Assembly (NCBI RefSeq): GCF_003334385.1
Contig: NZ_QOWN01000006.1
Strand: one strand, 5' to 3'
Origin: Escherichia coli
GTDB taxonomy: Bacteria; Pseudomonadota; Gammaproteobacteria; Enterobacterales; Enterobacteriaceae
Length of the DNA: 64,000 nucleotides
This document shows, piece after piece, positions 15,091 to 60,017 of the stretch; the stretch's first letter is position 1, and every line of letters starts with the position of its first letter. The notes beneath the pieces are model-generated. The model made no database searches. It saw only the letters and a list, made by a program, of their open reading frames with translations, and was not told the origin of the DNA. The position numbers and the translations under genes were made by a program.

Positions 15091-15177
15091 AAATCCCGAC
15101 CCTGAGGGGGTCGGGATGAAACTTGCTTAAGCAAGAAGCACTTAAAAAATTCGTTACACCAGGAAATCTGATGTGTT
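15091..15177 (-). ncRNA. dsrA: DsrA small regulatory RNA (Hfq-dependent regulator of rpoS and hns)
   Basis: Reverse complement reads AACACATCAGATTTCCTGGTGTAACGAATTTTTTAAGTGCTTCTTGCTTAAGCAAGTTTCATCCCGACCCCCTCAGGGTCGGGATTT, matching the recalled DsrA sequence including the terminal GC hairpin and U-tract. Confidence 0.9.
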
Positions 15178-19469: not shown

Positions 19470-20390
19470 ATGCGTTTCCGCCAGTTGTTACCGCTTTTTG
19501 GCGCGCTGTTTGCGTTGTATATCATTTGGGGCTCAACCTATTTTGTCATTCGGATTGGCGTGGAAAGCTGGCCTCCGTTAATGATGGCAGGCGTTCGATT
19601 CCTGGCAGCCGGTATTTTATTGATGGCATTTTTGCTACTGCGCGGACACAAACTCCCCCCGCTACGTCCGCTGCTCAATGCCGCGCTGATTGGCCTGTTA
19701 TTGCTGGCTGTCGGTAATGGCATGGTGACGGTTGCCGAACATCAAAATGTTCCTTCCGGCATCGCCGCCGTAGTGGTTGCAACCGTGCCCCTCTTTACCC
19801 TGTGCTTCAGCCGCCTGTTTGGCATTAAAACGCGCAAACTGGAATGGGTGGGTATTGCCATTGGGCTTGCCGGAATCATCATGCTCAATAGCGGTGGAAA
19901 TTTAAGCGGCAATCCGTGGGGCGCGATTCTGATTTTAATCGGCTCGATTAGCTGGGCGTTTGGCTCGGTTTATGGCTCGCGCATTACCTTACCTGTAGGG
20001 ATGATGGCGGGTGCGATTGAGATGCTGGCGGCAGGCGTGGTGTTAATGATCGCGTCGATGATTGCAGGTGAAAAACTGACGGCACTCCCTTCCCTTTCAG
20101 GCTTCCTTGCGGTCGGCTATCTGGCGCTGTTTGGTTCGATTATCGCCATTAACGCTTATATGTATTTAATCCGCAACGTCAGTCCGGCTCTCGCCACCAG
20201 CTACGCCTACGTTAACCCGGTGGTCGCGGTCTTGCTGGGTACGGGACTGGGCGGAGAAACGCTGTCGAAGATTGAATGGCTGGCGCTCGGCGTAATTGTC
20301 TTCGCGGTGGTACTGGTCACGTTGGGAAAATATCTCTTCCCGGCAAACCCCGTAGTTGCGCCAGTTATTCAGGACGCATCAAGCGAGTAA
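19470..20390 (+). CDS. yedA: EamA/DMT-family transporter YedA
   Basis: 306 aa, about ten predicted transmembrane segments. Confidence 0.9.
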   Translation: MRFRQLLPLFGALFALYIIWGSTYFVIRIGVESWPPLMMAGVRFLAAGILLMAFLLLRGHKLPPLRPLLNAALIGLLLLAVGNGMVTVAEHQNVPSGIAAVVVATVPLFTLCFSRLFGIKTRKLEWVGIAIGLAGIIMLNSGGNLSGNPWGAILILIGSISWAFGSVYGSRITLPVGMMAGAIEMLAAGVVLMIASMIAGEKLTALPSLSGFLAVGYLALFGSIIAINAYMYLIRNVSPALATSYAYVNPVVAVLLGTGLGGETLSKIEWLALGVIVFAVVLVTLGKYLFPANPVVAPVIQDASSE

Positions 20391-20849
20391 ATGAATCCCC
20401 TGCGTGTCGATCTGCGCGCTGGCACCTTCGCCGCAGATCCACTCTTCCAGACGCTCGCTAAGCGCTTCATCCGTCAGCTTCTCGCGCCCACGTAATGCAC
20501 ACTCCCAGACAATCAATACGCGCCAGCCGAGTTCCTGCAAACGACTGATATCGCGGCGATCGCGTTCAACATTTTTACCTATCTTCTCCAGCCAGAACTC
20601 GGTTCGAGTCGCAGGCACTTTAAACAGATAGCAGTGATGATGATGCCAGAAGCAGCCGTGGGTAAATATCACGCAGCGATATTCATCAACGACAAAATCC
20701 GGGCGTCCGGGCAGACTGGCGTCCTGAACGCGAAATGCCAGGCCCTGCCCGGTTAACAGACTGGCGAGGCGCTTCTCTATCGCCGTATCACGCGTGGCAA
20801 TCGCGCGCATATTTTTGCTGCGAGTGGCCTTATCGTGAACGTCGGCCAT
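20379..20849 (-). CDS. vsr: Very-short-patch repair endonuclease Vsr
   Basis: 156 aa from [17 protein letters not shown] (start codon at 20849); overlaps the dcm 3' end in another frame; ORF track 20379..21011 is an extension. Confidence 0.9.
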
Positions 20850-22248
20850 GTTGTGCCTCTTGCTGACGCAACGCCACCGCCTGTTTGATTTTTGGCTCAA
20901 GCAGTTTTGCCACCGCGGCAAAGACCGGCACGACCACCGAGTTACCGAACTGGCGATAGGCCTGAGTGTCCGAAACCGGAATGCGGAATTTCGCTTCTCC
21001 CGGCGCTTCAAAACCCATTAAGCGCGCGCATTCCCGAGGCGTTAACCGACGTGGACGATGTTGCTGATTCAGCGGATCGTCAAAGTCTTTCTCACCCGTG
21101 GCCATATCCCAGCCGCGATCGATTAAAATTTCCGCGCCATCTTTGTAATAACGCGCAGACAGCGTACGCGTGACGCTTTGCGGATTGTTAGGATAGACCA
21201 TTCCATAACCGAAGCCGTTACCGCGCGCCTGATGTTTTTTCGCATAACGATAGAGGTACTTCCACAGCACCGGCGTCAGGATATATTTCGCCTCGACCAT
21301 CGGGTCCAGCAGCTGTGCCAGCGTCACTCGCTGTGCAGGGAAACATTCGCTGATATCACGCAGAGTAAAATCGGCTTTCAGATTCAGATCGCGACGAAAA
21401 CCCACCAGCACGATGCGTTCACGGTGCTGCGGCAGAAAATGTTTACCATCGATGATTTTCGGATCGTCCGGCCCGTTATCTTCTGCATCAGCCACGTCAT
21501 AGCCCAGTTCGTCCAGCGTCTGCATGATGATGCGGAACGTTTTACCCTGGTCGTGGCTTTTCAGGTTTTTGACGTTTTCGAGCACAAACATCGCCGGACG
21601 ACGCGCGTCGATAATGCGCACCACATCAAAGAACAGCGTGCCCTGAGTATCGCAGGCAAAACCGTGCGCCCGCCCGAGCGAGTTCTTTTTCGATACGCCA
21701 GCCAGCGAAAATGGCTGACAAGGGAAACCGGCCAGTAAAACATCGTGTTCAGGAATGTGTTTACGAATATGTTCCGCCGCCGCCTCATCACTCACGCCTT
21801 CTTTATGGCTGAGGGTGATGTCGCGGATATCTTCATTAAAATGATGCGTCGCCGGGTCGCAATAATGATTGGCTTTATAAGTGCGTACCGCATGTTTGTT
21901 CCATTCGCTGGTAAACACGCATTGTCCGCCAATCGATTCAAAACCGCGACGGATGCCGCCAATTCCGGCAAATAGATCGATAAAGCGAAACGCATAATGC
22001 GGATGATGTGCCGGTGGTTTGGGTAACAACGTTTGCAGATGGGCGAACTCTTTCTCACTTAAACGGTGCCATGCCGAGTCATTCGCCAGCGCACGTTTTA
22101 AAATTGCCGCGCTCCAGTGATTCTCACCCACACCATTAAGCTGCGCCACCAGCGTTTTAACATCATAAATTTGCAGCAGTTTCTCCAGCATTGCCTGTGC
22201 GGCATTCCCGGTGCTGTATGAATCGGTTACTGATATATTTTCCTGCAT
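20830..22248 (-). CDS. dcm: DNA-cytosine C5 methyltransferase Dcm
   Basis: 472 aa from [12 protein letters not shown]5-MTase motifs FAGIGG and PCQPFS, ENV motif. Confidence 0.95.
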
Positions 22249-22314
22249 AGATTTCACCGGCCATCTGAGATGGCCGACAGGTTAACATAATTACAGCCAT
22301 TTAGGGCCACGCGC

Positions 22315-23010
22315 TCAGCCAGCGGATGAAAACGCATCTATCACCTTGTGATCGACACCTTCATTCTCCCCCGCCAGTTCGGCACTGAGCTTCGCCATAA
22401 ACTCGACTAAAAAATGCGCGTTGTGCTGCGCCAGCTGCTTGCCTCTTGCGGTTTGCATGGTTTGCGGTAGCTTCAGCAACTTAGTCTGGAAATGATCCAG
22501 CGCGTAGCGTTTATCATCAAGCGGGCGATGCTGTGCGAGCGGATCTTCACCATCAAACAGCGCCACGCCCAATGCCCCTGAAACGGCAAACACGCGCGCC
22601 AGGCCAATCGCTCCCAGGGCTTCCAGCCGATCTGCATCCAGGACGATTTTAGCTTCCGTGGTTAAGGGGGCGATTTGCGCGCTGAAACTGTGAGCGGCAA
22701 TGGCATGACAAACGGCCTCAATTTTCTCCGCCGGAAATTGCACGAACTCTTCACGGAGCAGGCGACGCGTCTCTTCTGCTGCCAGGATTGAAGAACGCTG
22801 CCTTTGCGGATGATTTTTCGCCAGGCTCACAATATCGTGAAAATAACAGGCGGTTAAAATCACCAGCATATCGACGTCGTCATCTGCCGCCAGCTTCTGT
22901 GCCGTAGCCCAGACGCGGCGAAAATGACACACGTCATGGGCCGCGTCCTGGTGCTGATGATGGTTTTTCAACCAATTTTCGAACTGTGCCTGCCAGTGTT
23001 GTAAGTCCAT
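22315..23010 (-). CDS. yedJ: HD-domain phosphohydrolase YedJ
   Basis: 231 aa with HD motif (YFHDIV). Confidence 0.9.
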
Positions 23011-23049
23011 ACGCGCTCCGTTGCCAAAGAGTCGCCACCTTAGCAGTTT

Positions 23050-23415
23050 TTATTCATAGCGTCTGCTACGTGCGGGACGAGGTCGGGTGTACCAGGCAAT
23101 GCTGCCTAACAATGCCCCGACCAGAGCCATAAATAAAAATCCGACCAGTGCCCCTAACCACTTTCCCGCGGTAGAGCCTAAATCGCTTTCAAATCCCGAC
23201 ACGGGGGCATCGGGGATCCGGCTCATCACCCAGATGTAACGCGCCATTGCCCAGACGAAATAGCCACACCATGTATAGAAAGCCCACAAAGCCAGTTTGC
23301 CGCCAGGGCTGCGAGAGAGTCTCTCTTCCATCTTTGTCGAACCGTATTCCATTTTGAGATAACCCGGAAAATTCAGACTTAGTACTATTATGTGATAAAA
23401 GTCACATTTTTCCAC
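23050..23415 (-). CDS. yedR: Inner membrane protein YedR
   Basis: Two transmembrane segments; start ambiguous (TTG 23433, GTG 23415, or internal ATGs); no clear RBS. Confidence 0.5.
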   Translation of the reverse strand: MEKCDFYHIIVLSLNFPGYLKMEYGSTKMEERLSRSPGGKLALWAFYTWCGYFVWAMARYIWVMSRIPDAPVSGFESDLGSTAGKWLGALVGFLFMALVGALLGSIAWYTRPRPARSRRYE

Positions 23416-23578
23416 ATTGGATGAGCCAGTCAAGACTCACTCATTTTTTGAACAAATAGATAATTTTTGCGCAACGGCAGTGAATACAGGAAAAATCGTT
23501 TTGAGCGATTTTATTTATCTTTGATATCGGCTTTATTAATTCATTTAATCAATATATTAGCACTGATTACAATTATAC

Positions 23579-23669
23579 CTTTTTATTATTCTGTGTCATG
23601 ATGCTTACGTTATTAGCCTTTTATCGTCTTGTTTATATTTTTTGGGCCGGCATGATGCCGGCTTTTTTT
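23579..23669 (+). ncRNA. rseX: Candidate RseX-like small RNA in the yedR-porin intergenic region
   Basis: Intrinsic terminator (gccggca-tga-tgccggc then seven T) at 23646-23669 with no + strand CDS to terminate; I recall RseX mapping between yedR and yedS; 5' end is a guess. Confidence 0.4.
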
Positions 23670-23980
23670 ATACCTTCATTAATGTGCGCGTGATCACACC
23701 AAGTGTTTAGCGCAACAATCATTGATACTCCCTATCTTTCCGCTTAACTCATAACATATTGATATACATTTATAATTTTCATGAATATTTATATTTGGAA
23801 TTCATGATTCTGAATTATATTAAATAGATTAGAAACATTTTGAAATCTTTTAAATACATTTGTTGCATGTAATCCTTAAAATAAAATGAAGTTCATAGAA
23901 TAGTATCCAAATGTGCTTTTTTTTGGATAACGGCACTTATTGATATATTCATGAAGATTATAATCACAAGGGAATACATA

Positions 23981-25039
23981 ATGAAAAGAAAAGTTCTGGC
24001 AATGCTGGTCCCGGCGTTATTAGTTGCTGGCGCAGCAAATGCGGCTGAAATTTATAATAAAAATGGCAATAAACTGGATTTGTACGGCAAGATGGTTGGT
24101 GAGCGCATTCTGACCGACCGTGAAAATGGTGAAAAAGGCGATAATTCTCAAGATACCTCTTATGCCCGTGTAGGCGTGAAAGGTGAAACTCAGATCAACC
24201 CTGAATTGACTGGTTACGGTCAGTTTGAACTAGACCTGGAAGCATCAAACAGACACAACCCTGACCAAACTCGTTTGGCTTATGCTGGTTTGAGTTACAA
24301 AGATTTTGGTTCATTCGACTATGGTCGTAATGTCGGTGTCGCGTATGATGCAGAAGCATTTACTGATATGTTTGTTGAGTGGGGCGGTGATTCATGGGCT
24401 GGTACTGACCTGTTCATGACCAACCGTACCAACGGTGTTGCAACCTATCGTAACACAGATTTCTTTGGCATGGTTGAAGGTCTAAATTTTGCTCTGCAAT
24501 ATCAGGGTAAAAATGAAGGTACAGGCAACTACAAAGCAAATGGCGATGGCCATGGTTTATCTGTAACTTACACTATTGACGGTTTCTCATTTGCTGGTGC
24601 TTACGCAAACTCTGATCGTACTGATTTCCAGTCTAGTGATAGTAAAGGTGAAAAAGCAGAAGTTTGGGCACTGTCAACAAAATATGATGCCAACAACGTC
24701 TATGCTGCTGTGATGTACGGTGAATCTCACAACATGAATTCCGACGACGGTGATGTTGTGAACAAAACACAAAACTTCGAAGTTGTTCTGCAATATCAGT
24801 TCGACTTCGGTCTGCGTCCATCCATCGGTTACTCCTATTCTAAAGCACTGGACGTAGCAGGTTACAAAGATTCTGATCGTCTGAACTACATTGAAATCGG
24901 TACCTGGTATTACTTCAATAAGAACATGAACGTATATACCGCTTATCAGATCAACCTGCTTGATAAGAGTGATTATGTTCTCGCTCATGGACTGAACACC
25001 GACGACCAACTCGCATTTGGTATCGTCTACCAGTTCTAA
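23981..25039 (+). CDS. yedS: General-diffusion porin of the OmpC/OmpF family (yedS-type), apparently intact
   Basis: Signal peptide MKRKVLAMLVPALLVAGAANA, beta-barrel repeats, C-terminal YQF; ORF track start 23951 trimmed to ATG 23981 with RBS. Confidence 0.8.
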   Translation: MKRKVLAMLVPALLVAGAANAAEIYNKNGNKLDLYGKMVGERILTDRENGEKGDNSQDTSYARVGVKGETQINPELTGYGQFELDLEASNRHNPDQTRLAYAGLSYKDFGSFDYGRNVGVAYDAEAFTDMFVEWGGDSWAGTDLFMTNRTNGVATYRNTDFFGMVEGLNFALQYQGKNEGTGNYKANGDGHGLSVTYTIDGFSFAGAYANSDRTDFQSSDSKGEKAEVWALSTKYDANNVYAAVMYGESHNMNSDDGDVVNKTQNFEVVLQYQFDFGLRPSIGYSYSKALDVAGYKDSDRLNYIEIGTWYYFNKNMNVYTAYQINLLDKSDYVLAHGLNTDDQLAFGIVYQF

Positions 25040-48625: not shown

Positions 48626-51600
48626 ATGGATAACTTGCGCTTCTCTTCTGCGCCGACAGCAGATTCCATTGATGCATCGATCGCTCAACACTACCCGGAC
48701 TGCGAACCTGTCGCGGTTATCGGCTACGCCTGCCATTTTCCTGAATCGCCGGATGGCGAAACGTTCTGGCAAAATCTGCTGGAAGGTCGTGAATGCAGCC
48801 GACGCTTTACGCGCGAAGAGCTTCTGGCCGTCGGTCTGGATGCCGCCATCATTGACGATCCTCATTATGTCAATATCGGTACGGTGTTAGACAACGCCGA
48901 CTGCTTCGACGCCACCCTGTTTGGCTATTCGCGACAGGAAGCGGAGTCGATGGACCCGCAGCAGCGCCTGTTTTTGCAGGCGGTCTGGCATGCGCTGGAA
49001 CATGCCGGTTATGCCCCCGGCGCCGTCCCCCATAAGACCGGCGTTTTCGCCTCTTCCCGGATGAGTACCTACCCCGGTCGCGAAGCATTGAACGTGACAG
49101 AAGTCGCGCAGGTAAAAGGTCTGCAATCTCTGATGGGCAATGATAAAGACTATATTGCCACCCGCGCCGCGTACAAACTCAACCTGCACGGCCCGGCGTT
49201 ATCGGTACAGACCGCCTGCTCCAGCTCGCTGGTTGCCGTGCATCTGGCCTGTGAAAGCCTGCGCGCTGGCGAATCCGATATGGCGGTTGCCGGCGGCGTG
49301 GCGCTCTCTTTCCCCCAGCAGGCAGGCTACCGCTACCAGCCCGGAATGATTTTCTCTCCTGATGGTCACTGTCGTCCCTTTGACGCCTCGGCTGAGGGCA
49401 CCTGGGCCGGTAACGGTCTCGGCTGCGTGGTGCTGCGTCGCCTGAGAGACGCGCTGCTGTCAGGCGATCCGATTATCTCGGTGATCCTCTCCAGCGCGGT
49501 CAACAACGACGGCAACAGAAAGGTCGGCTATACCGCCCCTTCCGTCGCAGGGCAACAAGCAGTCATCGAAGAGGCGTTAATGCTGGCGGCCATCGACGAC
49601 AGGCAGGTAGGTTACATTGAAACCCACGGCACCGGCACACCGCTGGGCGACGCGATTGAAATTGAAGCGTTACGCAACGTCTATGCGCCTCGCCCGCAGG
49701 ATCAGCGCTGTGCGCTCGGTTCCGTGAAAAGTAACATGGGCCATCTGGATACCGCGGCGGGCATTGCCGGACTGCTGAAAACCGTTCTGGCAGTCAGTCG
49801 CGGGCAAATTCCTCCCTTACTGAATTTTCACACCCCCAACCCGGCGCTGAAACTTGAAGAGAGCCCCTTTACCATACCGGTGTCGGCACAGGCATGGCAG
49901 GACGAAATGCGCTATGCGGGCGTCTCCTCCTTTGGTATTGGCGGCACCAACTGCCATATGATCGTCGCCTCGCTGCCCGACGCGCTCAACGCGCGCCTCC
50001 CCAATACGGATAGCGGCAGAAAAAGTACCGCGCTGCTGCTCAGCGCCGCCAGCGACAGCGCGTTGCGGCGGCTGGCGACGGATTATGCCGGGGCGCTGAG
50101 AGAGAATGCGGATGCCAGCTCTCTGGCCTTCACAGCCCTGCACGCGCGCCGTCTCGATCTCCCCTTCCGCCTGGCGGCGCCATTAAACCGTGAAACCGCC
50201 GAGGCGCTCAGCGCCTGGGCTAGTGAGAAATCGGGGGCGCTGGTTTACAGCGGCCACGGCGCCAGCGGCAAGCAGGTGTGGCTGTTTACCGGCCAGGGCT
50301 CGCACTGGCGCACTATGGGTCAAACGATGTACCAGCACTCAACGGCGTTTGCCGACACGCTGGATCGCTGTTTTTCCGCCTGTAGCGAAATGCTCACGCC
50401 GTCACTGCGCGAAGCGATGTTTAACCCCGATTCGGCGCAGCTGGACAATATGGCCTGGGCGCAGCCGGCGATTGTCGCGTTTGAAATCGCGATGGCGGCG
50501 CACTGGCGTGCTGAAGGACTGAAGCCAGACTTCGCCATTGGGCATTCCGTCGGTGAATTTGCCGCTGCCGTTGTCTGCGGACACTATACGATTGAACAGG
50601 TCATGCCACTGGTTTGTCGGCGCGGCGCGCTAATGCAGCAGTGCGCAAGCGGCGCGATGGTGGCGGTATTTGCAGACGAAGACACGCTGATGCCGCTGGC
50701 TCGCCAGTTTGAGCTGGATCTCGCCGCCAACAACGGTACGCAACATACGGTATTTTCCGGGCCGGAAGCCCGTCTCGCGGTATTTTGCGCCACGCTCTCG
50801 CAGCATGACATTAACTATCGTCGCCTGAGCGTAACCGGTGCGGCGCACTCCGCTTTACTGGAGCCGATACTCGATCGGTTCCAGGACGCCTGCGCGGGAC
50901 TGCACGCGGAGCCGGGGCAAATACCGATTATTTCCACGCTCACCGCCGACGTCATTGATGAGTCAACGCTCAACCAGGCGGATTACTGGCGCCGACACAT
51001 GCGCCAGCCGGTGCGTTTTATCCAGAGTATTCAGGTGGCGCATCAGCTCGGCGCCCGCGTTTTTCTGGAGATGGGGCCCGATGCCCAGTTGGTTGCTTGC
51101 GGGCAGCGCGAATACCGCGATAACGCATACTGGATAGCCAGCGCCCGGCGTAACAAAGAGGCGAGCGATGTCCTCAATCAGGCCCTGCTCCAGCTTTACG
51201 CTGCCGGCGTCGCCCTACCGTGGGCCGACCTGCTGGCGGGCGATGGACAACGTATCGCTGCGCCATGTTATCCGTTTGATACTGAACGTTACTGGAAAGA
51301 GCGCGTCTCCCCGGCCTGCGAGCCTGCCGACGCAGCGCTGTCTGCCGGGCTGGAGGTGGCGAGTCGCGCCGCGACAGCGCTCGATCTCCCTCGCCTGGAA
51401 GCGCTTAAACAGTGCGCCACGCGACTGCACGCCATCTACGTCGATCAACTGGTACAACGCTGTACCGGCGATGCCATTGAGAACGGCGTGGACGCCATGA
51501 CCATCATGCGCCGTGGACGTCTGCTGCCCCGCTACCAGCAGCTACTCCAGCGCCTGCTGAATAACTGCGTGGTCGACGGCGATTACCGCTGCACCGACGG

Positions 51601-54600
51601 GCGATACGTCCGCGCCCGCCCCATTGAACATCAACAGCGGGAATCACTGCTGACGGAACTTGCCGGTTATTGTGAAGGTTTTCAGGCTATTCCCGACACC
51701 ATCGCCCGTGCCGGCGATCGGTTATATGAAATGATGAGCGGCGCGGAAGAACCGGTGGCGATTATCTTCCCGCAAAGCGCCTCCGACGGCGTGGAAGTGC
51801 TGTATCAGGAATTCAGCTTTGGCCGCTATTTCAACCAAATCGCCGCCGGGGTATTACGCGGCATTGTCCAGACGCGTCAGCCCCGCCAGCCGTTGCGTAT
51901 TCTTGAAGTTGGCGGCGGAACCGGCGGCACCACCGCGTGGCTGCTGCCGGAACTCAACGGCGTTCCGGCACTGGAGTACCATTTCACCGATATCTCGGCG
52001 CTGTTCACCCGTCGCGCCCAGCAGAAATTCGCCGACTACGATTTTGTGAAGTATAGCGAGCTGGATCTCGAAAAAGAGGCGCAGTCTCAGGGTTTCCAGG
52101 CACAGTCTTACGATCTTATCGTGGCAGCGAACGTGATTCACGCCACCCGCCATATTGGCCGCACGCTCGATAATCTGCGCCCCCTGCTCAAGCCGGGCGG
52201 GCGCCTGCTGATGCGCGAAATCACCCAGCCAATGCGTCTGTTTGACTTCGTTTTCGGCCCGCTGGTTCTTCCGCTACAGGATCTCGACGCCCGCGAAGGT
52301 GAGTTATTCCTCACCACCGCTCAGTGGCAACAACAGTGCCGCCACGCCGGATTCAGCAAAGTGGCGTGGCTACCGCAGGATGGCAGCCCGAACGCCGGGA
52401 TGAGCGAACATATCATTCTCGCCACGCTGCCCGGTCAGGCGGTTAGCGCCGTAACATTCACCGCGCCATCAGAACCCGTGTTGGGGCAGGCGCTGACGGA
52501 TAACGGTGATTATCTCGCCGACTGGTCTGATTGCGCAGGTCAGCCCGAACAGTTTAACGCCCGCTGGCAGGAGGCATGGCGTCTGCTTTCACAGCGTCAT
52601 GGCGACGCTCTGCCTGTGGAACCGCCCCCCGTCGCCGCCCCGGAGTGGCTGGGGAAGGTTCGCTTAAGCTGGCAAAACGAAGCCTTTTCCCGCGGTCAGA
52701 TGCGCGTTGAAGCCCGTCATCCTGCTGGCGAGTGGCTGCCGCTATCGCCCGCCGCGCCTCTTCCTGCGCCGCAAACGCATTATCAATGGCGCTGGACGCC
52801 CCTCAACGTCGCCAGCATTGACCATCCGCTTACCTTTAGCTTCAGCGCCGGTACGCTTGCGCGCAGCGACGAGCTGGCGCAATACGGCATCATTCACGAT
52901 CCGCACGCCTCTTCACGACTGATGATTGTTGAGGAGAGCGAGGATACGCTGGCCTTAGCGGAGAAAGTGATAGCAGCGCTCACCGCCAGCGCAGCCGGGT
53001 TGATTGTGGTTACTCGCCGCGCGTGGCGAGTCGAGGAAAATGAAGCACTCTCTGCATCCCATCACGCGCTATGGGCCTTGCTTCGCGTCGCGGCCAACGA
53101 ACAGCCGGAACGGTTGCTTGCCGCCATCGATCTCGCCGAAAACACCCCGTGGGAAACGCTGCATCAAGGGTTGAGCGCAGTCTCACTATCACAGCGCTGG
53201 CTCGCCGCACGGGGTGACACCCTTTGGCTTCCTTCACTGTCGCCCAATACGGGATGCGCCGCTGAATTACCGGCAAACGTGTTTACCGGCGATAGCCGCT
53301 GGCATCTGGTGACCGGAGCGTTTGGCGGATTAGGCCGCCTTGCCGTGAACTGGCTCAGAGAAAAAGGGGCGCGACGCATCGCCCTGCTGGCGCCGCGCGT
53401 GGATGAGTCATGGCTACGCGACGTGGAGGGCGGGCAGACGCGCGTCTGCCGTTGTGATGTGGGCGATGCCGGGCAACTGGCCACGGTTCTTGACGATCTG
53501 GCGGCCAACGGCGGCATTGCCGGAGCGATTCATGCCGCTGGCGTATTGGCTGACGCGCCCTTGCAGGAGCTTGATGACCACCAGCTGGCTGCCGTTTTCG
53601 CGGTAAAAGCGCAGGCGGCAAGCCAGCTGTTGCAAACCCTGCGCAACCACGACGGACGCTATCTTATTCTCTACTCTTCCGCTGCCGCCACCCTCGGCGC
53701 GCCGGGTCAGAGCGCCCATGCGCTGGCCTGCGGCTACCTGGACGGGCTGGCCCAGCAGTTTTCCACCCTTGATGCGCCGAAAACGCTCTCTGTCGCCTGG
53801 GGCGCATGGGGAGAAAGCGGTCGGGCGGCCACGCCGGAAATGCTGGCGACGCTCGCCAGCCGAGGTATGGGCGCGTTAAGCGATGCCGAAGGCTGCTGGC
53901 ACCTGGAACAGGCGGTGATGCGCGGCGCCCCGTGGCGACTGGCGATGCGCGTTTTTACCGACAAAATGCCCCCGTTACAACAGGCTCTGTTTAACATCAG
54001 CGCCACAGAAAAAGCCGCAACGCCGGTCATTCCTCCTGCTGATGACAACGCCTTTAACGGCAGCCTGAGCGATGAAACAGCGGTGATGGCATGGCTGAAA
54101 AAGCGGATTGCGGTTCAGCTAAGGCTGAGCGATCCGGCGTCACTGCATCCAAACCAGGATCTGTTGCAACTCGGCATGGACTCGCTGCTCTTCCTTGAAC
54201 TCAGTAGCGATATTCAGCACTACCTGGGTGTACGCATCAATGCGGAACGGGCGTGGCAGGATCTGTCTCCTCATGGACTCACGCAGCTTATCTGTTCTAA
54301 GCCAGAGGCGACGCCTGCCGCTTCGCAGCCGGAAGTGTTGCGGCACGACGCCGACGAGCGTTATGCGCCCTTCCCTTTGACGCCCATTCAGCACGCCTAC
54401 TGGCTGGGGCGAACCCACCTCATTGGCTATGGCGGCGTCGCCTGTCACGTCCTGTTTGAGTGGGATAAACGCCACGATGAGTTCGATCTCGCCATACTGG
54501 AGAAAGCATGGAACCAGCTCATCGCACGCCACGATATGTTGCGTATGGTGGTTGATGCCGACGGGCAGCAGCGAATCCTGGCGACAACGCCGGAGTATCA

Positions 54601-57600
54601 CATCCCGCGTGACGATCTGCGCGCGCTTTCCCCGGAAGAACAGCGCATCGCGCTGGAAAAACGGCGGCATGAACTGAGCTATCGCGTTTTGCCTGCCGAC
54701 CAGTGGCCTCTTTTTGAGCTGGTGGTCAGCGAAATCGACGATTGCCATTACCGTCTGCATATGAACCTCGACCTTTTGCAGTTTGATGTGCAGAGTTTTA
54801 AAGTCATGATGGACGACCTGGCGCAGGTCTGGCGCGGTGAAACGCTGGCACCGCTCGCTATTACCTTCCGTGATTATGTGATGGCTGAACAGGCGCGCCG
54901 ACAGACATCGGCATGGCACGATGCCTGGGATTACTGGCAGGAAAAACTGCCGCAACTGCCCTTAGCGCCAGAGCTGCCGGTGGTTGAGACGCCCCCGGAA
55001 ACGCCACACTTCACCACCTTCAAATCGACGATCGGCAAGACAGAATGGCAGGCCGTGAAACAGCGCTGGCAGCAGCAAGGCGTCACACCGTCTGCCGCGC
55101 TGCTCACGCTGTTTGCCGCCACCCTTGAGCGCTGGAGCCGTACCACAACATTTACGCTGAACCTGACGTTCTTCAATCGCCAGCCGATCCATCCGCAAAT
55201 CAACCAGTTGATTGGTGATTTTACCTCCGTCACGCTGGTTGATTTTAACTTCTCAGCGCCGGTGACGTTGCAAGAGCAGATGCAACAGACCCAACAGCGC
55301 CTCTGGCAAAACATGGCGCACAGTGAAATGAACGGTGTTGAGGTGATCCGTGAGCTGGGCCGCCTGCGCGGATCACAACGTCAACCGCTGATGCCGGTAG
55401 TGTTTACCAGTATGCTGGGGATGACGCTGGAAGGCATGACTATCGATCAGGCGATGAGCCATCTGTTCGGCGAACCCTGCTATGTATTCACGCAAACGCC
55501 GCAGGTCTGGCTGGATCATCAGGTCATGGAGAGCGACGGCGAGTTGATGTTTAGCTGGTACTGCATGGACAACGTGCTGGAACCCGGCGCTGCCGAGGCG
55601 ATGTTTAATGACTATTGCGCCATCCTGCAAGCCGTCATCGCCGCCCCTGAAAGCCTGAAGACTCTCGCCAGCGGCATCGCCAGGCACATTCCCCGCCGAC
55701 GCTGGCCGCTGAACGCGCAGGCGGACTACGACCTGCGGGATATTGAGCAGGCGACGCTCGAATACCCCGGCATCCGGCAGGCCAGAGCGGAAATAACCGA
55801 ACAGGGCGCGTTGACGCTGGATATCGTGATGGCCGACGATCCTTCGCCATCAGCGGCGATGCCTGATGAGCACGAACTTACCCAACTGGCGCTGCCGTTG
55901 CCTGAGCAGGCGCAGCTTGATGAGCTGGAGGCGACCTGGCGCTGGCTGGAGGCGCGTGCGCTACAGGGGATCGCGGCTACGCTAAATCGTCACGGCCTGT
56001 TTACCACGCCGGAGATCGCCCATCGCTTTAGCGCAATAGTACAGGCGCTGTCCTCGCAAGCATCTCACCAGCGTCTGCTGCGCCAGTGGCTACAGTGTCT
56101 GACGGAAAGAGAGTGGTTAATCCGCGAAGGTGAAAGCTGGCGCTGCCGCATTCCGCTCAGCGAGATTCCTGAGCCTCAGGAAGCGTGCCCGCAAAGCCAA
56201 TGGAGCCAGGCGCTGGCGCAGTATCTGGAAACCTGCATCGCCCGGCACGACGCCCTCTTCTCCGGGCAGTGTTCTCCGCTGGAATTGCTGTTCAACGAGC
56301 AGCATCGCGTTACCGACGCGCTGTATCGCGACAACCCCGCCAGCGCCTGTCTGAATCGCTATACCGCGCAGATTGCCGCCTTGTGCAGCGCAGAACGGAT
56401 TCTGGAGGTTGGCGCCGGAACCGCAGCCACTACCGCGCCGGTGCTGAAGGCCACGCGGAACACGCGACAGTCGTACCACTTCACGGACGTCTCCGCGCAG
56501 TTCCTCAATGACGCCAGAGCCCGTTTCCATGATGAATCGCAGGTGTCTTATGCCTTGTTCGACATCAACCAGCCGCTGGATTTCACCGCCCACCCGGAGG
56601 CGGGTTACGACCTGATCGTTGCCGTCAATGTGCTCCACGACGCCAGCCATGTCGTCCAGACGTTGCGCAGATTAAAACTGTTGCTGAAAGCCGGCGGACG
56701 TTTGCTGATCGTTGAAGCGACGGAGCGAAACAGCGTATTCCAGCTGGCGAGCGTGGGCTTTATTGAGGGATTAAGCGGATACCGCGATTTCCGCCGCCGG
56801 GATGAGAAACCGATGCTCACCCGCTCCGCATGGCAGGAGGTTCTCGTTCAGGCCGGGTTTGCAAACGAGCTGGCGTGGCCCGCGCAGGAATCGTCGCCGC
56901 TGCGCCAGCATCTGCTGGTAGCGCGTTCGCCTGGCGTAAATCGCCCGGATAAAAAAGCCGTGAGCCGCTATTTACAGCAGCGCTTTGGCACCGGTCTGCC
57001 CATTTTACAGATCCGGCAAAGAGAAGCGTTATTTACGCCGCTGCATGCCCCGTCTGATGCGCCGACTGAGCCAGCCAAACCCACGCCAGTTGCCGGGGGG
57101 AATCCGGCACTGGAAAAACAGGTGGCTGAACTCTGGCAATCGCTGCTGTCTCGCCCCGTGGCAAGGCATCACGACTTTTTCGAACTGGGCGGCGACAGCC
57201 TGATGGCGACAAGGATGGTCGCGCAGCTAAACCGGAGAGGGATTGCCAGGGCTAACCTTCAGGATCTGTTCAGCCATTCGACGCTGAGCGACTTCTGCGC
57301 CCATCTACAGGCGGCTACGTCAGGAGAGGACAACCCGATACCCCTTTGCCAGGGCGACGGTGAGGAAACCCTGTTTGTCTTCCACGCTTCAGACGGCGAT
57401 ATCAGCGCCTGGCTGCCGCTCGCTAGCGCGTTGAACAGGCGCGTTTTCGGCCTGCAAGCAAAATCGCCGCAGCGCCTTGCCACGCTCGACCAGATGATCG
57501 ATGAGTATGTCGGGTGCATCCGTCGTCAGCAGCCTCACGGCCCTTATGTGCTGGCGGGTTGGTCGTATGGCGCGTTTCTTGCGGCGGGCGCCGCACAACG

Positions 57601-58117
57601 CCTGTACGCCAAAGGCGAGCAGGTTCGGATGGTGTTAATCGATCCCGTGTGCCGACAGGATTTCTGTTGCGAAAACCGGGCGGCCCTGCTGCGCCTGTTA
57701 GCCGAAGGACAAACGCCTCTGGCACTGCCCGAACATTTCGACCAGCAGACGCCCGACAGCCAGCTTGCCGACTTTATCAGCCTCGCTAAAACGGCCGGTA
57801 TGGTGTCGCAAAACCTGACGCTGCAAGCGGCAGAAACGTGGCTCGACAACATCGCGCATCTGCTGCGTTTACTGACTGAGCATACGCCGGGCGAAAGCGT
57901 TCCGGTCCCCTGTCTCATGGTGTATGCCGCCGGGAGACCCGCGCACTGGACGCCAGCAGAAACCGAGTGGCAGGGCTGGATAAACAACGCCGACGACGCT
58001 GTGATTGAAGCCAGCCACTGGCAAATCATGATGGAAGCCCCCCACGTTCAGGCTTGTGCGCAACACATTACGCGCTGGCTTTGCGCAACCTCAACGCAAC
58101 CGGAGAACACGTTATGA
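48626..58117 (+). CDS. irp1: Yersiniabactin PKS/NRPS hybrid HMWP1
   Basis: 3163 aa; KS active site TACSSS (about 49211-49228), AT GHSVGE (about 50540-50557), ACP GMDSL, Cy domain, PCP GGDSL, C-terminal thioesterase GWSYGA (about 57558-57575). Confidence 0.95.
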   Translation: MDNLRFSSAPTADSIDASIAQHYPDCEPVAVIGYACHFPESPDGETFWQNLLEGRECSRRFTREELLAVGLDAAIIDDPHYVNIGTVLDNADCFDATLFGYSRQEAESMDPQQRLFLQAVWHALEHAGYAPGAVPHKTGVFASSRMSTYPGREALNVTEVAQVKGLQSLMGNDKDYIATRAAYKLNLHGPALSVQTACSSSLVAVHLACESLRAGESDMAVAGGVALSFPQQAGYRYQPGMIFSPDGHCRPFDASAEGTWAGNGLGCVVLRRLRDALLSGDPIISVILSSAVNNDGNRKVGYTAPSVAGQQAVIEEALMLAAIDDRQVGYIETHGTGTPLGDAIEIEALRNVYAPRPQDQRCALGSVKSNMGHLDTAAGIAGLLKTVLAVSRGQIPPLLNFHTPNPALKLEESPFTIPVSAQAWQDEMRYAGVSSFGIGGTNCHMIVASLPDALNARLPNTDSGRKSTALLLSAASDSALRRLATDYAGALRENADASSLAFTALHARRLDLPFRLAAPLNRETAEALSAWASEKSGALVYSGHGASGKQVWLFTGQGSHWRTMGQTMYQHSTAFADTLDRCFSACSEMLTPSLREAMFNPDSAQLDNMAWAQPAIVAFEIAMAAHWRAEGLKPDFAIGHSVGEFAAAVVCGHYTIEQVMPLVCRRGALMQQCASGAMVAVFADEDTLMPLARQFELDLAANNGTQHTVFSGPEARLAVFCATLSQHDINYRRLSVTGAAHSALLEPILDRFQDACAGLHAEPGQIPIISTLTADVIDESTLNQADYWRRHMRQPVRFIQSIQVAHQLGARVFLEMGPDAQLVACGQREYRDNAYWIASARRNKEASDVLNQALLQLYAAGVALPWADLLAGDGQRIAAPCYPFDTERYWKERVSPACEPADAALSAGLEVASRAATALDLPRLEALKQCATRLHAIYVDQLVQRCTGDAIENGVDAMTIMRRGRLLPRYQQLLQRLLNNCVVDGDYRCTDGRYVRARPIEHQQRESLLTELAGYCEGFQAIPDTIARAGDRLYEMMSGAEEPVAIIFPQSASDGVEVLYQEFSFGRYFNQIAAGVLRGIVQTRQPRQPLRILEVGGGTGGTTAWLLPELNGVPALEYHFTDISALFTRRAQQKFADYDFVKYSELDLEKEAQSQGFQAQSYDLIVAANVIHATRHIGRTLDNLRPLLKPGGRLLMREITQPMRLFDFVFGPLVLPLQDLDAREGELFLTTAQWQQQCRHAGFSKVAWLPQDGSPNAGMSEHIILATLPGQAVSAVTFTAPSEPVLGQALTDNGDYLADWSDCAGQPEQFNARWQEAWRLLSQRHGDALPVEPPPVAAPEWLGKVRLSWQNEAFSRGQMRVEARHPAGEWLPLSPAAPLPAPQTHYQWRWTPLNVASIDHPLTFSFSAGTLARSDELAQYGIIHDPHASSRLMIVEESEDTLALAEKVIAALTASAAGLIVVTRRAWRVEENEALSASHHALWALLRVAANEQPERLLAAIDLAENTPWETLHQGLSAVSLSQRWLAARGDTLWLPSLSPNTGCAAELPANVFTGDSRWHLVTGAFGGLGRLAVNWLREKGARRIALLAPRVDESWLRDVEGGQTRVCRCDVGDAGQLATVLDDLAANGGIAGAIHAAGVLADAPLQELDDHQLAAVFAVKAQAASQLLQTLRNHDGRYLILYSSAAATLGAPGQSAHALACGYLDGLAQQFSTLDAPKTLSVAWGAWGESGRAATPEMLATLASRGMGALSDAEGCWHLEQAVMRGAPWRLAMRVFTDKMPPLQQALFNISATEKAATPVIPPADDNAFNGSLSDETAVMAWLKKRIAVQLRLSDPASLHPNQDLLQLGMDSLLFLELSSDIQHYLGVRINAERAWQDLSPHGLTQLICSKPEATPAASQPEVLRHDADERYAPFPLTPIQHAYWLGRTHLIGYGGVACHVLFEWDKRHDEFDLAILEKAWNQLIARHDMLRMVVDADGQQRILATTPEYHIPRDDLRALSPEEQRIALEKRRHELSYRVLPADQWPLFELVVSEIDDCHYRLHMNLDLLQFDVQSFKVMMDDLAQVWRGETLAPLAITFRDYVMAEQARRQTSAWHDAWDYWQEKLPQLPLAPELPVVETPPETPHFTTFKSTIGKTEWQAVKQRWQQQGVTPSAALLTLFAATLERWSRTTTFTLNLTFFNRQPIHPQINQLIGDFTSVTLVDFNFSAPVTLQEQMQQTQQRLWQNMAHSEMNGVEVIRELGRLRGSQRQPLMPVVFTSMLGMTLEGMTIDQAMSHLFGEPCYVFTQTPQVWLDHQVMESDGELMFSWYCMDNVLEPGAAEAMFNDYCAILQAVIAAPESLKTLASGIARHIPRRRWPLNAQADYDLRDIEQATLEYPGIRQARAEITEQGALTLDIVMADDPSPSAAMPDEHELTQLALPLPEQAQLDELEATWRWLEARALQGIAATLNRHGLFTTPEIAHRFSAIVQALSSQASHQRLLRQWLQCLTEREWLIREGESWRCRIPLSEIPEPQEACPQSQWSQALAQYLETCIARHDALFSGQCSPLELLFNEQHRVTDALYRDNPASACLNRYTAQIAALCSAERILEVGAGTAATTAPVLKATRNTRQSYHFTDVSAQFLNDARARFHDESQVSYALFDINQPLDFTAHPEAGYDLIVAVNVLHDASHVVQTLRRLKLLLKAGGRLLIVEATERNSVFQLASVGFIEGLSGYRDFRRRDEKPMLTRSAWQEVLVQAGFANELAWPAQESSPLRQHLLVARSPGVNRPDKKAVSRYLQQRFGTGLPILQIRQREALFTPLHAPSDAPTEPAKPTPVAGGNPALEKQVAELWQSLLSRPVARHHDFFELGGDSLMATRMVAQLNRRGIARANLQDLFSHSTLSDFCAHLQAATSGEDNPIPLCQGDGEETLFVFHASDGDISAWLPLASALNRRVFGLQAKSPQRLATLDQMIDEYVGCIRRQQPHGPYVLAGWSYGAFLAAGAAQRLYAKGEQVRMVLIDPVCRQDFCCENRAALLRLLAEGQTPLALPEHFDQQTPDSQLADFISLAKTAGMVSQNLTLQAAETWLDNIAHLLRLLTEHTPGESVPVPCLMVYAAGRPAHWTPAETEWQGWINNADDAVIEASHWQIMMEAPHVQACAQHITRWLCATSTQPENTL

Positions 58118-59214
58118 TGCCGTCCGCCTCCCCAAAACAACGCGTACTGATTGTGGGCGCCAAATTTGGCGAAATGTACCTGAATGCCTTTATGCAGCCC
58201 CCGGAGGGGCTGGAACTGGTCGGCCTGCTGGCGCAGGGAAGCGCCCGTTCAAGAGAGCTGGCTCATGCGTTTGGCATTCCGCTGTATACCTCGCCGGAAC
58301 AGATAACCAGGATGCCGGATATCGCCTGTATTGTCGTGCGTTCGACCGTCGCCGGAGGAACCGGTACGCAGCTTGCCAGACACTTTCTGACGCGCGGCGT
58401 ACACGTCATTCAGGAGCATCCCCTCCACCCGGATGACATCAGTTCCTTACAAACGCTGGCGCAGGAACAGGGCTGCTGCTATTGGGTAAACACGTTTTAT
58501 CCGCATACGCGCGCGGGACGCACATGGCTTCGCGATGCGCAGCAGCTGCGTCGCTGTCTGGCTAAGACGCCGCAGGTGGTCCACGCCACCACCAGCCGAC
58601 AGTTGCTCTACTCCACTCTGGATTTGTTGTTGCTGGCTCTGGGCGTTGATGCCGTCGCCGTGGAGTGCGACGTGGTTGGCAGCTTTAGCGATTTTCACTG
58701 TCTGAGACTCTTCTGGCCGGAGGGAGAAGCCTGCCTGCTGCTTCAGCGCTATCTCGATCCTGACGATCCAGATATGCATAGCCTTATCATGCACCGCCTG
58801 CTGCTGGGCTGGCCGGAAGGTCATCTTTCGCTGGAGGCGAGCTACGGCCCCGTCATCTGGTCATCCAGCCTGTTTGTCGCAGACCATCAGGAGAACGCCC
58901 ACAGCCTCTACCGCAGACCGGAGATCCTGCGCGATCTGCCGGGTCTGACGCGCAGCGCGGCGCCCCTGAGCTGGCGCGACTGCTGCGAAACCGTCGGGCC
59001 GGAGGGCGTCAGCTGGTTGCTACACCAGTTGCGCAGCCATCTGGCGGGCGAACATCCACCAGCGGCCTGCCAAAGCGTACATCAGATCGCGTTATCACGT
59101 TTATGGCAGCAGATTTTACGTAAGACCGGCAATGCGGAGATCAGACGCCTGACGCCGCCGCACCACGACCGGTTAGCCGGTTTCTACAACGATGATGATA
59201 AGGAGGCGCTGTGA
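58114..59214 (+). CDS. ybtU: Thiazolinyl-imide reductase YbtU
   Basis: 366 aa from MMPSASPKQRVLIVGAKFG (Rossmann-like N-terminus); ATG overlaps the irp1 stop (ATGA); ORF track start 58054 is an extension. Confidence 0.9.
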   Translation: MMPSASPKQRVLIVGAKFGEMYLNAFMQPPEGLELVGLLAQGSARSRELAHAFGIPLYTSPEQITRMPDIACIVVRSTVAGGTGTQLARHFLTRGVHVIQEHPLHPDDISSLQTLAQEQGCCYWVNTFYPHTRAGRTWLRDAQQLRRCLAKTPQVVHATTSRQLLYSTLDLLLLALGVDAVAVECDVVGSFSDFHCLRLFWPEGEACLLLQRYLDPDDPDMHSLIMHRLLLGWPEGHLSLEASYGPVIWSSSLFVADHQENAHSLYRRPEILRDLPGLTRSAAPLSWRDCCETVGPEGVSWLLHQLRSHLAGEHPPAACQSVHQIALSRLWQQILRKTGNAEIRRLTPPHHDRLAGFYNDDDKEAL

Positions 59215-60014
59215 CGCAATCTGCAATGTGCATACCGCTGTGGCCCGCCCGGAACGGCAATACTGCGCATCTGGTCATGTGCCCTTTCGCTGGCGGCAGC
59301 AGTAGCGCGTTTCGCCACTGGCAAGCTGAGCAACTGGCTGATTGCGCGCTTTCTCTGGTGACCTGGCCGGGGCGCGATCGCCTTCGCCATCTGGAACCGC
59401 TCAGAAGCATTACACAACTGGCGGCACTGCTGGCGAACGAGCTGGAAGCATCCGTATCGCCTGACACGCCGCTTTTACTCGCCGGGCACAGCATGGGGGC
59501 GCAGGTGGCGTTTGAAACCTGCCGACTTCTGGAGCAACGGGGGCTTGCGCCACAAGGACTGATTATTTCCGGGTGCCATGCCCCGCATCTGCATTCTGAA
59601 CGCCAGCTCAGCCATCGCGATGATGCCGACTTTATCGCTGAGCTGATAGACATTGGCGGATGTTCTCCTGAACTGCGGGAAAACCAGGAATTAATGTCGC
59701 TGTTTCTTCCTCTTCTGCGCGCTGATTTTTACGCCACCGAGAGCTATCACTACGACTCGCCCGACGTCTGTCCGCCGCTGCGCACGCCTGCGCTGTTATT
59801 GTGCGGCAGCCACGATCGCGAAGCCTCCTGGCAGCAGGTCGATGCCTGGCGTCAGTGGCTGAGCCACGTTACAGGCCCGGTGGTGATTGACGGCGATCAT
59901 TTCTATCCCATTCAACAAGCCCGGTCCTTTTTTACGCAGATTGTCCGCCATTTTCCCCACGCATTTTCTGCAATGACCGCGTTGCAAAAACAGCCCAGTA
60001 CTTCAGAAAGGTGA
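59211..60014 (+). CDS. ybtT: Type II (editing) thioesterase YbtT
   Basis: 267 aa; GHSMG serine hydrolase motif; GTG start 6 nt after RBS aaggagg, overlapping the ybtU stop. Confidence 0.9.
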   Translation: MTQSAMCIPLWPARNGNTAHLVMCPFAGGSSSAFRHWQAEQLADCALSLVTWPGRDRLRHLEPLRSITQLAALLANELEASVSPDTPLLLAGHSMGAQVAFETCRLLEQRGLAPQGLIISGCHAPHLHSERQLSHRDDADFIAELIDIGGCSPELRENQELMSLFLPLLRADFYATESYHYDSPDVCPPLRTPALLLCGSHDREASWQQVDAWRQWLSHVTGPVVIDGDHFYPIQQARSFFTQIVRHFPHAFSAMTALQKQPSTSER

Positions 60015-60017
60015 CGC

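Follow-up and report, generated by a model that had tools for sequence, protein, structure and literature searches.

In Escherichia coli, the gene for the T:G mismatch endonuclease Vsr begins inside the gene for the cytosine methyltransferase Dcm, and this locus raises the question of whether that junction is intact here and how vsr is expressed from a start codon embedded in another reading frame. An earlier note on this DNA had placed the vsr start codon at 20849, within the dcm coding sequence, and described a 20-nt overlap (20830..20849) with vsr in a different frame. Sequence and translation bear out these positions exactly. Both genes lie on the − strand, which the note had left implicit. 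The features of the locus are given below, with positions counted along the window, that is, the whole stretch of DNA that was analysed (64,000 nt).

20830..22248, − strand: dcm, DNA-cytosine (C5) methyltransferase, 472 aa, stop codon TAA at 20832..20830, translation uninterrupted
20379..20849, − strand: vsr, T:G mismatch endonuclease of very-short-patch repair, 156 aa, start codon ATG at 20849..20847, translation uninterrupted
20830..20849, − strand: overlap of dcm and vsr, 20 nt, from sequence, translation and K-12 alignment
20856..20861, − strand: AAGAGG, Shine-Dalgarno-like, 6 nt before the vsr ATG and within dcm codons 463-465
20379..20390: 12 nt shared by the convergent genes vsr (− strand) and yedA (+ strand) at their 3' ends, from the list of open reading frames
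19470..20390, + strand: yedA, 513 bits against NF008432

What the junction shows is the usual dcm–vsr arrangement of E. coli in intact form, already known and on record since 1990. The identities that the note had given to the two genes are supported by family profiles scored above cut-off, near-identity to the K-12 proteins and, for Vsr, a match to PDB entry 1CW0. In profile searches, Dcm reached 951.4 bits against NF007772 (curated cut-off 710) and 350.8 bits against TIGR00675 (curated cut-off 100.65). The motifs of a C5-methylase are all in place: FAGIGG at residue 93 (the AdoMet-binding FxGxG), PCQ at 176 (the catalytic Pro-Cys, with Cys177), ENV at 224 and GNS at 435 (motif X). Identity with K-12 Dcm at 471 of 472 residues suggests that the enzyme acts at CCWGG. 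The start of dcm is taken to be the ATG at 22248, in agreement with the K-12 annotation. A GTG farther upstream, at 22257, was dropped as a candidate because it lacks conservation: the corresponding sequence is GGTTAAA in both Salmonella and E. coli 1190.

For Vsr, the profile TIGR00632 gave 182.7 bits (cut-off 97.85), with residues 1-118 aligned to profile positions 1-119, and 155 of 156 residues are identical to chain A of 1CW0, which is named DNA mismatch endonuclease and whose crystallised active enzyme comprises residues 2-156. The profile score, the alignment from residue 1 and the match to 1CW0 together argue that vsr is not a chance open reading frame. The protein carries D51, T63, H64, C66, F67, W68, H69, H71, C73, W86, D97 and C117, most of which are invariant in an alignment of four diverse Vsr sequences. 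We take the catalytic Asp/His, the Cys/His zinc site and the intercalating aromatic residues to have the roles assigned to them in the Vsr structures of 1999. From its near-identity to K-12 Vsr, the enzyme would nick 5' of the T in C(T/G)WGG. The ATG at 20849 is the sole ATG of the open vsr frame until codon 14 (20810), and homologues at 42-44% identity start at an aligned M-A/P-D. Alternative starts at TTG 21011, 20921 and 20900 were rejected because alignment of homologues, the crystallised construct and the TIGR00632 profile all point to the ATG at 20849.

On the − strand, the junction reads ...CAGCAAGAGGCACAAC-ATG-GCC-GAC-GTT-CAC-GAT-AAG..., with CAG CAA GAG GCA CAA C preceding that ATG in codon view. 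The vsr ATG starts at dcm nt 1400, which puts vsr in the +1 frame of dcm. On the vsr side, the 20 nt hold codons 1-6 and two bases of codon 7 (M-A-D-V-H-D-K); on the dcm side, they hold codons 467-472 and the stop (H-G-R-R-S-R-*). The overlap lies past the conserved methylase domain, the TIGR00675 match stopping at Dcm residue 450, and the Dcm tail beneath it looks dispensable because residues 467-472 fall beyond that point.

Comparison with K-12 MG1655 indicates that nothing has disturbed this arrangement. There, vsr (b1960) is annotated at 2030448..2030918 and dcm (b1961) at 2030899..2032317, again with a 20-nt overlap, in line with the note's description of the arrangement as a known one. 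Gene order, strand relationship and the +1 frame are common to both, as are the neighbours, with yedA convergent (12-nt overlap) and yedJ upstream. Over 1,942 nt, the alignment of dcm–vsr with K-12 holds 31 substitutions and no indel (~98.4% identity). The 24 nucleotide differences in dcm and the seven in vsr each lead to a single amino acid change, Q163K in Dcm and T131S in Vsr, both outside the overlap and outside the catalytic motifs, and around the junction a stretch of 101 nt matches K-12 at every position. A frameshift separating the two frames, the event that would have undone the note's statement that the junction is intact, was looked for in this alignment and is absent; both reading frames run uninterrupted and the catalytic motifs are kept.

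The operon is also widespread within the species. A 2-kb query found the dcm–vsr operon in 5,368 of 5,426 complete E. coli genomes, where the annotation was always dcm and vsr, and a 70-nt junction query was identical in 3,283 of 5,320 genomes, the remainder being 1-2 nt off. In the two variant alleles that were examined (E. coli 1190 and F8111-1SC3), the changes fall outside the 20 nt and the overlap is still 20 nt long. Two records filed as plasmids in PLSDB, NZ_OL790696.1 and CP148763.1, also contain dcm–vsr in its chromosomal surroundings: a 4.8-Mb sequence from E. coli and a non-mobilizable 500-kb sequence from Salmonella, the latter with the gene order drpB–yedJ–dcm–vsr–yedA–yedI–yodC. 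Both are probably mislabelled or misassembled chromosomal DNA.

Salmonella enterica shows the same 20-nt dcm/vsr overlap and the same 12-nt vsr/yedA overlap, the latter also annotated in K-12 and other E. coli, within the synteny drpB–yedJ–dcm–vsr–yedA–yedI–yodC that is found in the window. Its Vsr is identical at 135 of 156 residues with the N-terminus MADVHDK unchanged, whereas its Dcm, at 476 aa, is identical at 397 of 477 aligned positions and ends in …VDGGRSR instead of the …QHGRRSR of E. coli. The Shine-Dalgarno region is GAGAGAGA, purine-rich and at -5.3 kcal/mol, where E. coli has AAGAGG. The one change in the overlap itself, GCC→GCG, is silent in vsr and turns an Arg of the Dcm tail into Gly. 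A conserved Vsr N-terminus thus seems to overlie a dispensable-looking Dcm tail, and from this single substitution the constraint on the overlap appears to be carried by the vsr frame.

An overlap in the +1 frame also invites a quite different reading, in which ribosomes would shift into the +1 frame within the 20 nt and Vsr would form the C-terminal portion of the resulting Dcm–Vsr fusion. The geometry is compatible with such an event: besides lying in the +1 frame of dcm, the vsr frame is open for 56 codons upstream of its ATG, from 21017. The fusion is effectively refuted by what is known of the protein, since the Vsr profile begins at residue 1 of the product that starts at ATG 20849, the active crystallised enzyme is residues 2-156, and even distant homologues start at the aligned M-A/P-D; no slippery motif is evident within the 20 nt either. 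Dar and Bhagwat are said to have found in 1993 that Vsr is a separate polypeptide and to have excluded a fusion. A separate Vsr, begun at its own start codon, is the reading carried forward here.

How general the overlap is was examined at 80 vsr loci in IMG/VR contigs, 32 of which have a C5-methylase reading frame ending beside the vsr start. In loci without annotation, vsr starts were placed by alignment to residue 1, and the overlap lengths are approximate because several of these starts are TTG and could lie a few codons away from the true ones. With that limit, 22 of the 32 pairs overlap. The 8-nt form is found in 11, mostly as NTG-GCT-GA in the +1 frame; 1 nt is shared in six pairs, 4 nt in two, and 11 nt and 16 nt in one each, while the 20-nt form occurs once, in an E. 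coli-like contig (L011). The other 10 pairs do not overlap, with gaps of 2-35 nt in nine and 133 nt in one. Since 22 of the 32 pairs overlap, most often by 8 nt, overlap would be the majority state and the 20-nt length an enterobacterial version of a widespread arrangement, specific to that lineage and longer than the common form.

Plasmid and phage cassettes in which methylase (M), vsr (V) and restriction endonuclease (R) genes follow one another resemble E. coli in having a C5-methylase followed by vsr on the same strand, with the vsr start overlapping the methylase 3' end, for the most part in the +1 register. They differ in the length of the overlap, 8 or 1 nt instead of 20, and in what comes next: a restriction endonuclease gene follows vsr in the cassettes, whereas Dcm of E. 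coli is a solitary methylase and vsr is followed by a convergent transporter gene. Cassettes on Neorhizobium and Acidithiobacillus plasmids have 8-nt overlaps (ATGGCTGA and GTGCCTGA) in the +1 frame; a Pseudomonas plasmid methylase–vsr pair overlaps by 1 nt, as does the pair in Burkholderia phage KL3 by its published coordinates (PMC3091744). The 8-nt forms read GCT-GA, with the methylase stop TGA, where E. coli reads GCC-GA, with CGA for Arg, and E. coli Dcm continues four codons (RRSR) past the stop of the 8-nt form to its TAA. A single T→C change, silent in vsr codon 2, would be enough to turn the 8-nt form into the 20-nt form.

Vsr genes also occur in other company. In some viral or prophage contigs (IMG/VR loci L049, L065, L057 and L033), vsr directly follows not a methylase but genes resembling those of defence systems, whose reading frames end at about position 2500 of each locus. 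These include a gene for an MzaE-like AIPR protein (921 bits, just below the cut-off of 1050), one for a Z1-domain MzaC-like protein and one for a HerA-like helicase. At L066, L072, L073 and L078, the gene before vsr is a 540-aa reading frame that has no family match; L071 shares their junction sequence but has an open frame of 397 aa.

Turning to expression, we are highly confident in the following account: the locus is a chromosomal dcm–vsr operon in its standard, intact form, with one mRNA for both genes and with vsr initiated separately and in dependence on dcm. Dcm would methylate CCWGG at the inner cytosine; a 5-methylcytosine that is deaminated would leave a T:G mismatch, Vsr would nick 5' of the T, and DNA polymerase I and ligase would then restore C:G. 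A single mRNA begun upstream of dcm would serve both genes, and translation of Vsr would begin at an AUG of its own (20849) and yield a separate protein, with the AAGAGG inside the last dcm codons as its Shine-Dalgarno sequence. Because ribosomes ending dcm cross the vsr initiation site, the AUG lying 20 nt before the end of the dcm stop codon, expression of vsr would depend on transcription and translation of dcm, with either unmasking of the vsr site or re-initiation as the presumed coupling step.

The account agrees with the published descriptions. Two papers that cite Sohail et al. 1990 (PMC12907096 and PMC4924334) place dcm and vsr in one operon, and PMC4444293, citing Dar & Bhagwat 1993, describes dcm as partially overlapping vsr and reports that dcm-6, a nonsense mutation at dcm codon 45, abolishes Vsr activity as well. 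Vsr nicks the T:G mismatches that deamination of Dcm-methylated cytosine leaves in CTWGG/CCWGG, and it needs its first 14 residues to be fully active and to be stimulated by MutL (PMC2715241). A literature search on translational coupling of vsr to dcm turned up nothing specific, and the dependence on dcm could reflect either translational coupling or transcriptional polarity; the effect of dcm-6 in particular could arise by Rho-dependent polarity. The note's further claim, that the arrangement couples methylation with repair, therefore stands as gene linkage and co-expression (one operon, and loss of Vsr activity in dcm-6) and not as equal or constant levels of the two proteins. Vsr levels reportedly change with growth phase (PMC2715241), so that expression of Dcm and Vsr is not strictly locked; Vsr is reported to be low during growth, with VSP repair occurring mainly in stationary phase.

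Should vsr instead be translated independently from its own Shine-Dalgarno sequence and AUG, the overlap would be compact packing, uncoupled from translation of dcm. The initiation site is reasonable enough for this: the duplex of AAGAGG with the 16S anti-Shine-Dalgarno sequence is worth -5.8 kcal/mol, within the strongest 3.2% of the operon's 10-mers, at a canonical spacing of 6 nt. Equally good sequences stand at 8 of the operon's 95 start-like codons, however, so this one counts as supportive and no further. Nor is there significant RNA structure to be opened. A hairpin predicted at ~20877..20824 holds the Shine-Dalgarno sequence, the vsr AUG and the dcm stop, but the fold of the 131 nt around the junction (20930→20800), at -42.5 kcal/mol, is indistinguishable from those of shuffled sequences (z = -0.39), and computation thus lends no support to structural masking of the vsr start. 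Additionally, the 10 sampled pairs that do not overlap (gaps of 2-133 nt) fit independent initiation, as does Caulobacter crescentus, where the solitary cytosine methylase ScmA is functionally tied to the Vsr-like endonuclease VsrA although the two genes are unlinked, at near-opposite chromosomal positions, and share neither an overlap nor an operon (PMC12907096). On the other side are the loss of Vsr activity through a nonsense mutation as early as dcm codon 45 (PMC4444293) and the overlap geometry common to E. coli and Salmonella. With these in view, independent initiation is unlikely. Dar and Bhagwat reportedly found in 1993 that the vsr transcript begins upstream of dcm and that efficient synthesis of Vsr requires translation of dcm; the latter finding also speaks against it.

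A promoter inside dcm would likewise make the overlap irrelevant to vsr expression, and the growth-phase differences between Vsr and Dcm (PMC2715241) could in principle derive from one, although they point to nothing specific. A consensus scan of 20000..23700 found no sigma-70-like promoter inside dcm; the three sites in that range all lie at 23.39-23.60 kb, against 3.6 in shuffled sequences. The scan covers the sigma-70-type consensus, and sigma-S or weak promoters fall outside its reach. The polar effect of dcm-6 and the one-operon descriptions, in the papers already cited, further argue against an internal promoter, which we consider very improbable. Dependent expression of vsr from a shared mRNA remains the preferred account.

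Within that account, the 20-nt overlap may be imagined as a growth-phase-sensitive translational valve that operates through the predicted hairpin. We regard this reading as doubtful, along with the related one in which the 20-nt overlap arose from the 8-nt form. If the valve were real, the difference between Dcm and Vsr levels would be set at the overlap, with Vsr initiation following ribosome traffic at the end of dcm.

Two further elements lie in or next to the operon. The 66-nt spacer between yedJ and dcm holds a perfect 9-bp palindrome, CGGCCATCT-G-AGATGGCCG (22258..22276), that ends 10 nt before the dcm ATG. K-12 and E. coli 1190 have it unchanged, and Salmonella only in part; it could be a putative RNA hairpin or protein-binding site acting on dcm–vsr expression. 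On the + strand, antisense to vsr, a terminator-like hairpin with a T-run (CGCGTGGCAATCGCGCG CATATTTTTG) lies at 20791..20817, 13 nt away from the dcm/vsr overlap and ~400 nt past the stop codon of yedA. It may serve to terminate yedA read-through within vsr, or the match may be due to chance; the scan that found it gave nine terminator-like sites against 4.6 in shuffled sequences.

The composition of the window carries a possible trace of this repair chemistry. CTAGG occurs once and CCTAG twice in all 64,000 nt, which makes them the two rarest of the 1,024 pentamers relative to base composition, and CTTGG (11 occurrences) and CCAAG (nine) rank 11-12 from the lowest, while CCAGG is present 81 times and CCTGG 87 times. 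The depleted pentamers are the products expected from deamination of Dcm sites. Third-order Markov ratios are only 0.48-0.67, which places most of the depletion in the constituent tetramers. The pattern fits the idea, for which PMC5337935 cites Bhagwat & McClelland 1992, that oligonucleotide abundance has been shaped by VSP repair. The depletion extends to an acquired island at the end of the window, with eight occurrences observed against ~122 expected. The remainder of the window is laid out as follows.

1-14 kb: yedE/F/K and fliE–R
Next, in order: rcsA, then DsrA (15091..15177, − strand), dsrB, yodD, yedP, dgcQ, yodC, yedI, yedA, vsr, dcm, yedJ, drpB
23580..23669, + strand: RseX
After RseX, in order: a porin gene, hchA, hprRS, hiuH, msrPQ, zinT, tRNA-Ser, mtfA, tRNA-Asn
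33572..64000: yersiniabactin high-pathogenicity island, from 33.6 kb to the window end, inserted at tRNA-Asn (33572..33647)

Following RseX, an intact 362-aa reading frame (23951..25039) lies where K-12 has yedS, a porin pseudogene, and where a porin is annotated in LR-50 (a positional match). The island carries ybtS, ybtX, ybtQ, ybtP, ybtA, irp2 (2041 aa), irp1 (3163 aa), ybtU, ybtT, ybtE and fyuA. Strain 4/2-1 and E. coli NCTC10444 each match the region at 99.9% identity, and 80% or more of it is found in 2,233 of 5,426 complete genomes. The integrase is broken into a 53-aa N-terminal reading frame (33809..33970) and a 308-aa reading frame in another frame (33798..34724), the remains spanning ~916 nt, whereas the asn-tRNA-associated integrase pseudogenes that LR-50 has in its annotation measure ~1,263 nt; in strain 4/2-1, PGAP labels the equivalent 'tyrosine-type recombinase/integrase, frameshifted'. 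Because its integrase is broken, the island is probably fixed in place. Additionally, yodB (cytochrome b) is missing between zinT and tRNA-Ser (31822..32043), where 222 bp stand in place of ~995 bp in LR-50. A query with the layout that lacks yodB is matched over 80% or more of its length in 2,286 genomes, a total near the 2,233 for the island, and the two totals fit flanking DNA having spread along with the island.

The dcm–vsr overlap belongs to textbook knowledge of E. coli and is annotated as such, correctly, in genomes by the thousand; finding it once more carries little weight as a discovery. It serves as a positive control, in that a real 20-nt out-of-frame overlap was read from raw sequence with exact coordinates. 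The comparison with other systems adds a small amount of context: the overlap of a methylase stop with a vsr start is the majority pattern among the sampled pairs, and the enterobacterial 20-nt overlap would be a lengthened version of the 8-nt form that is commonest among them.
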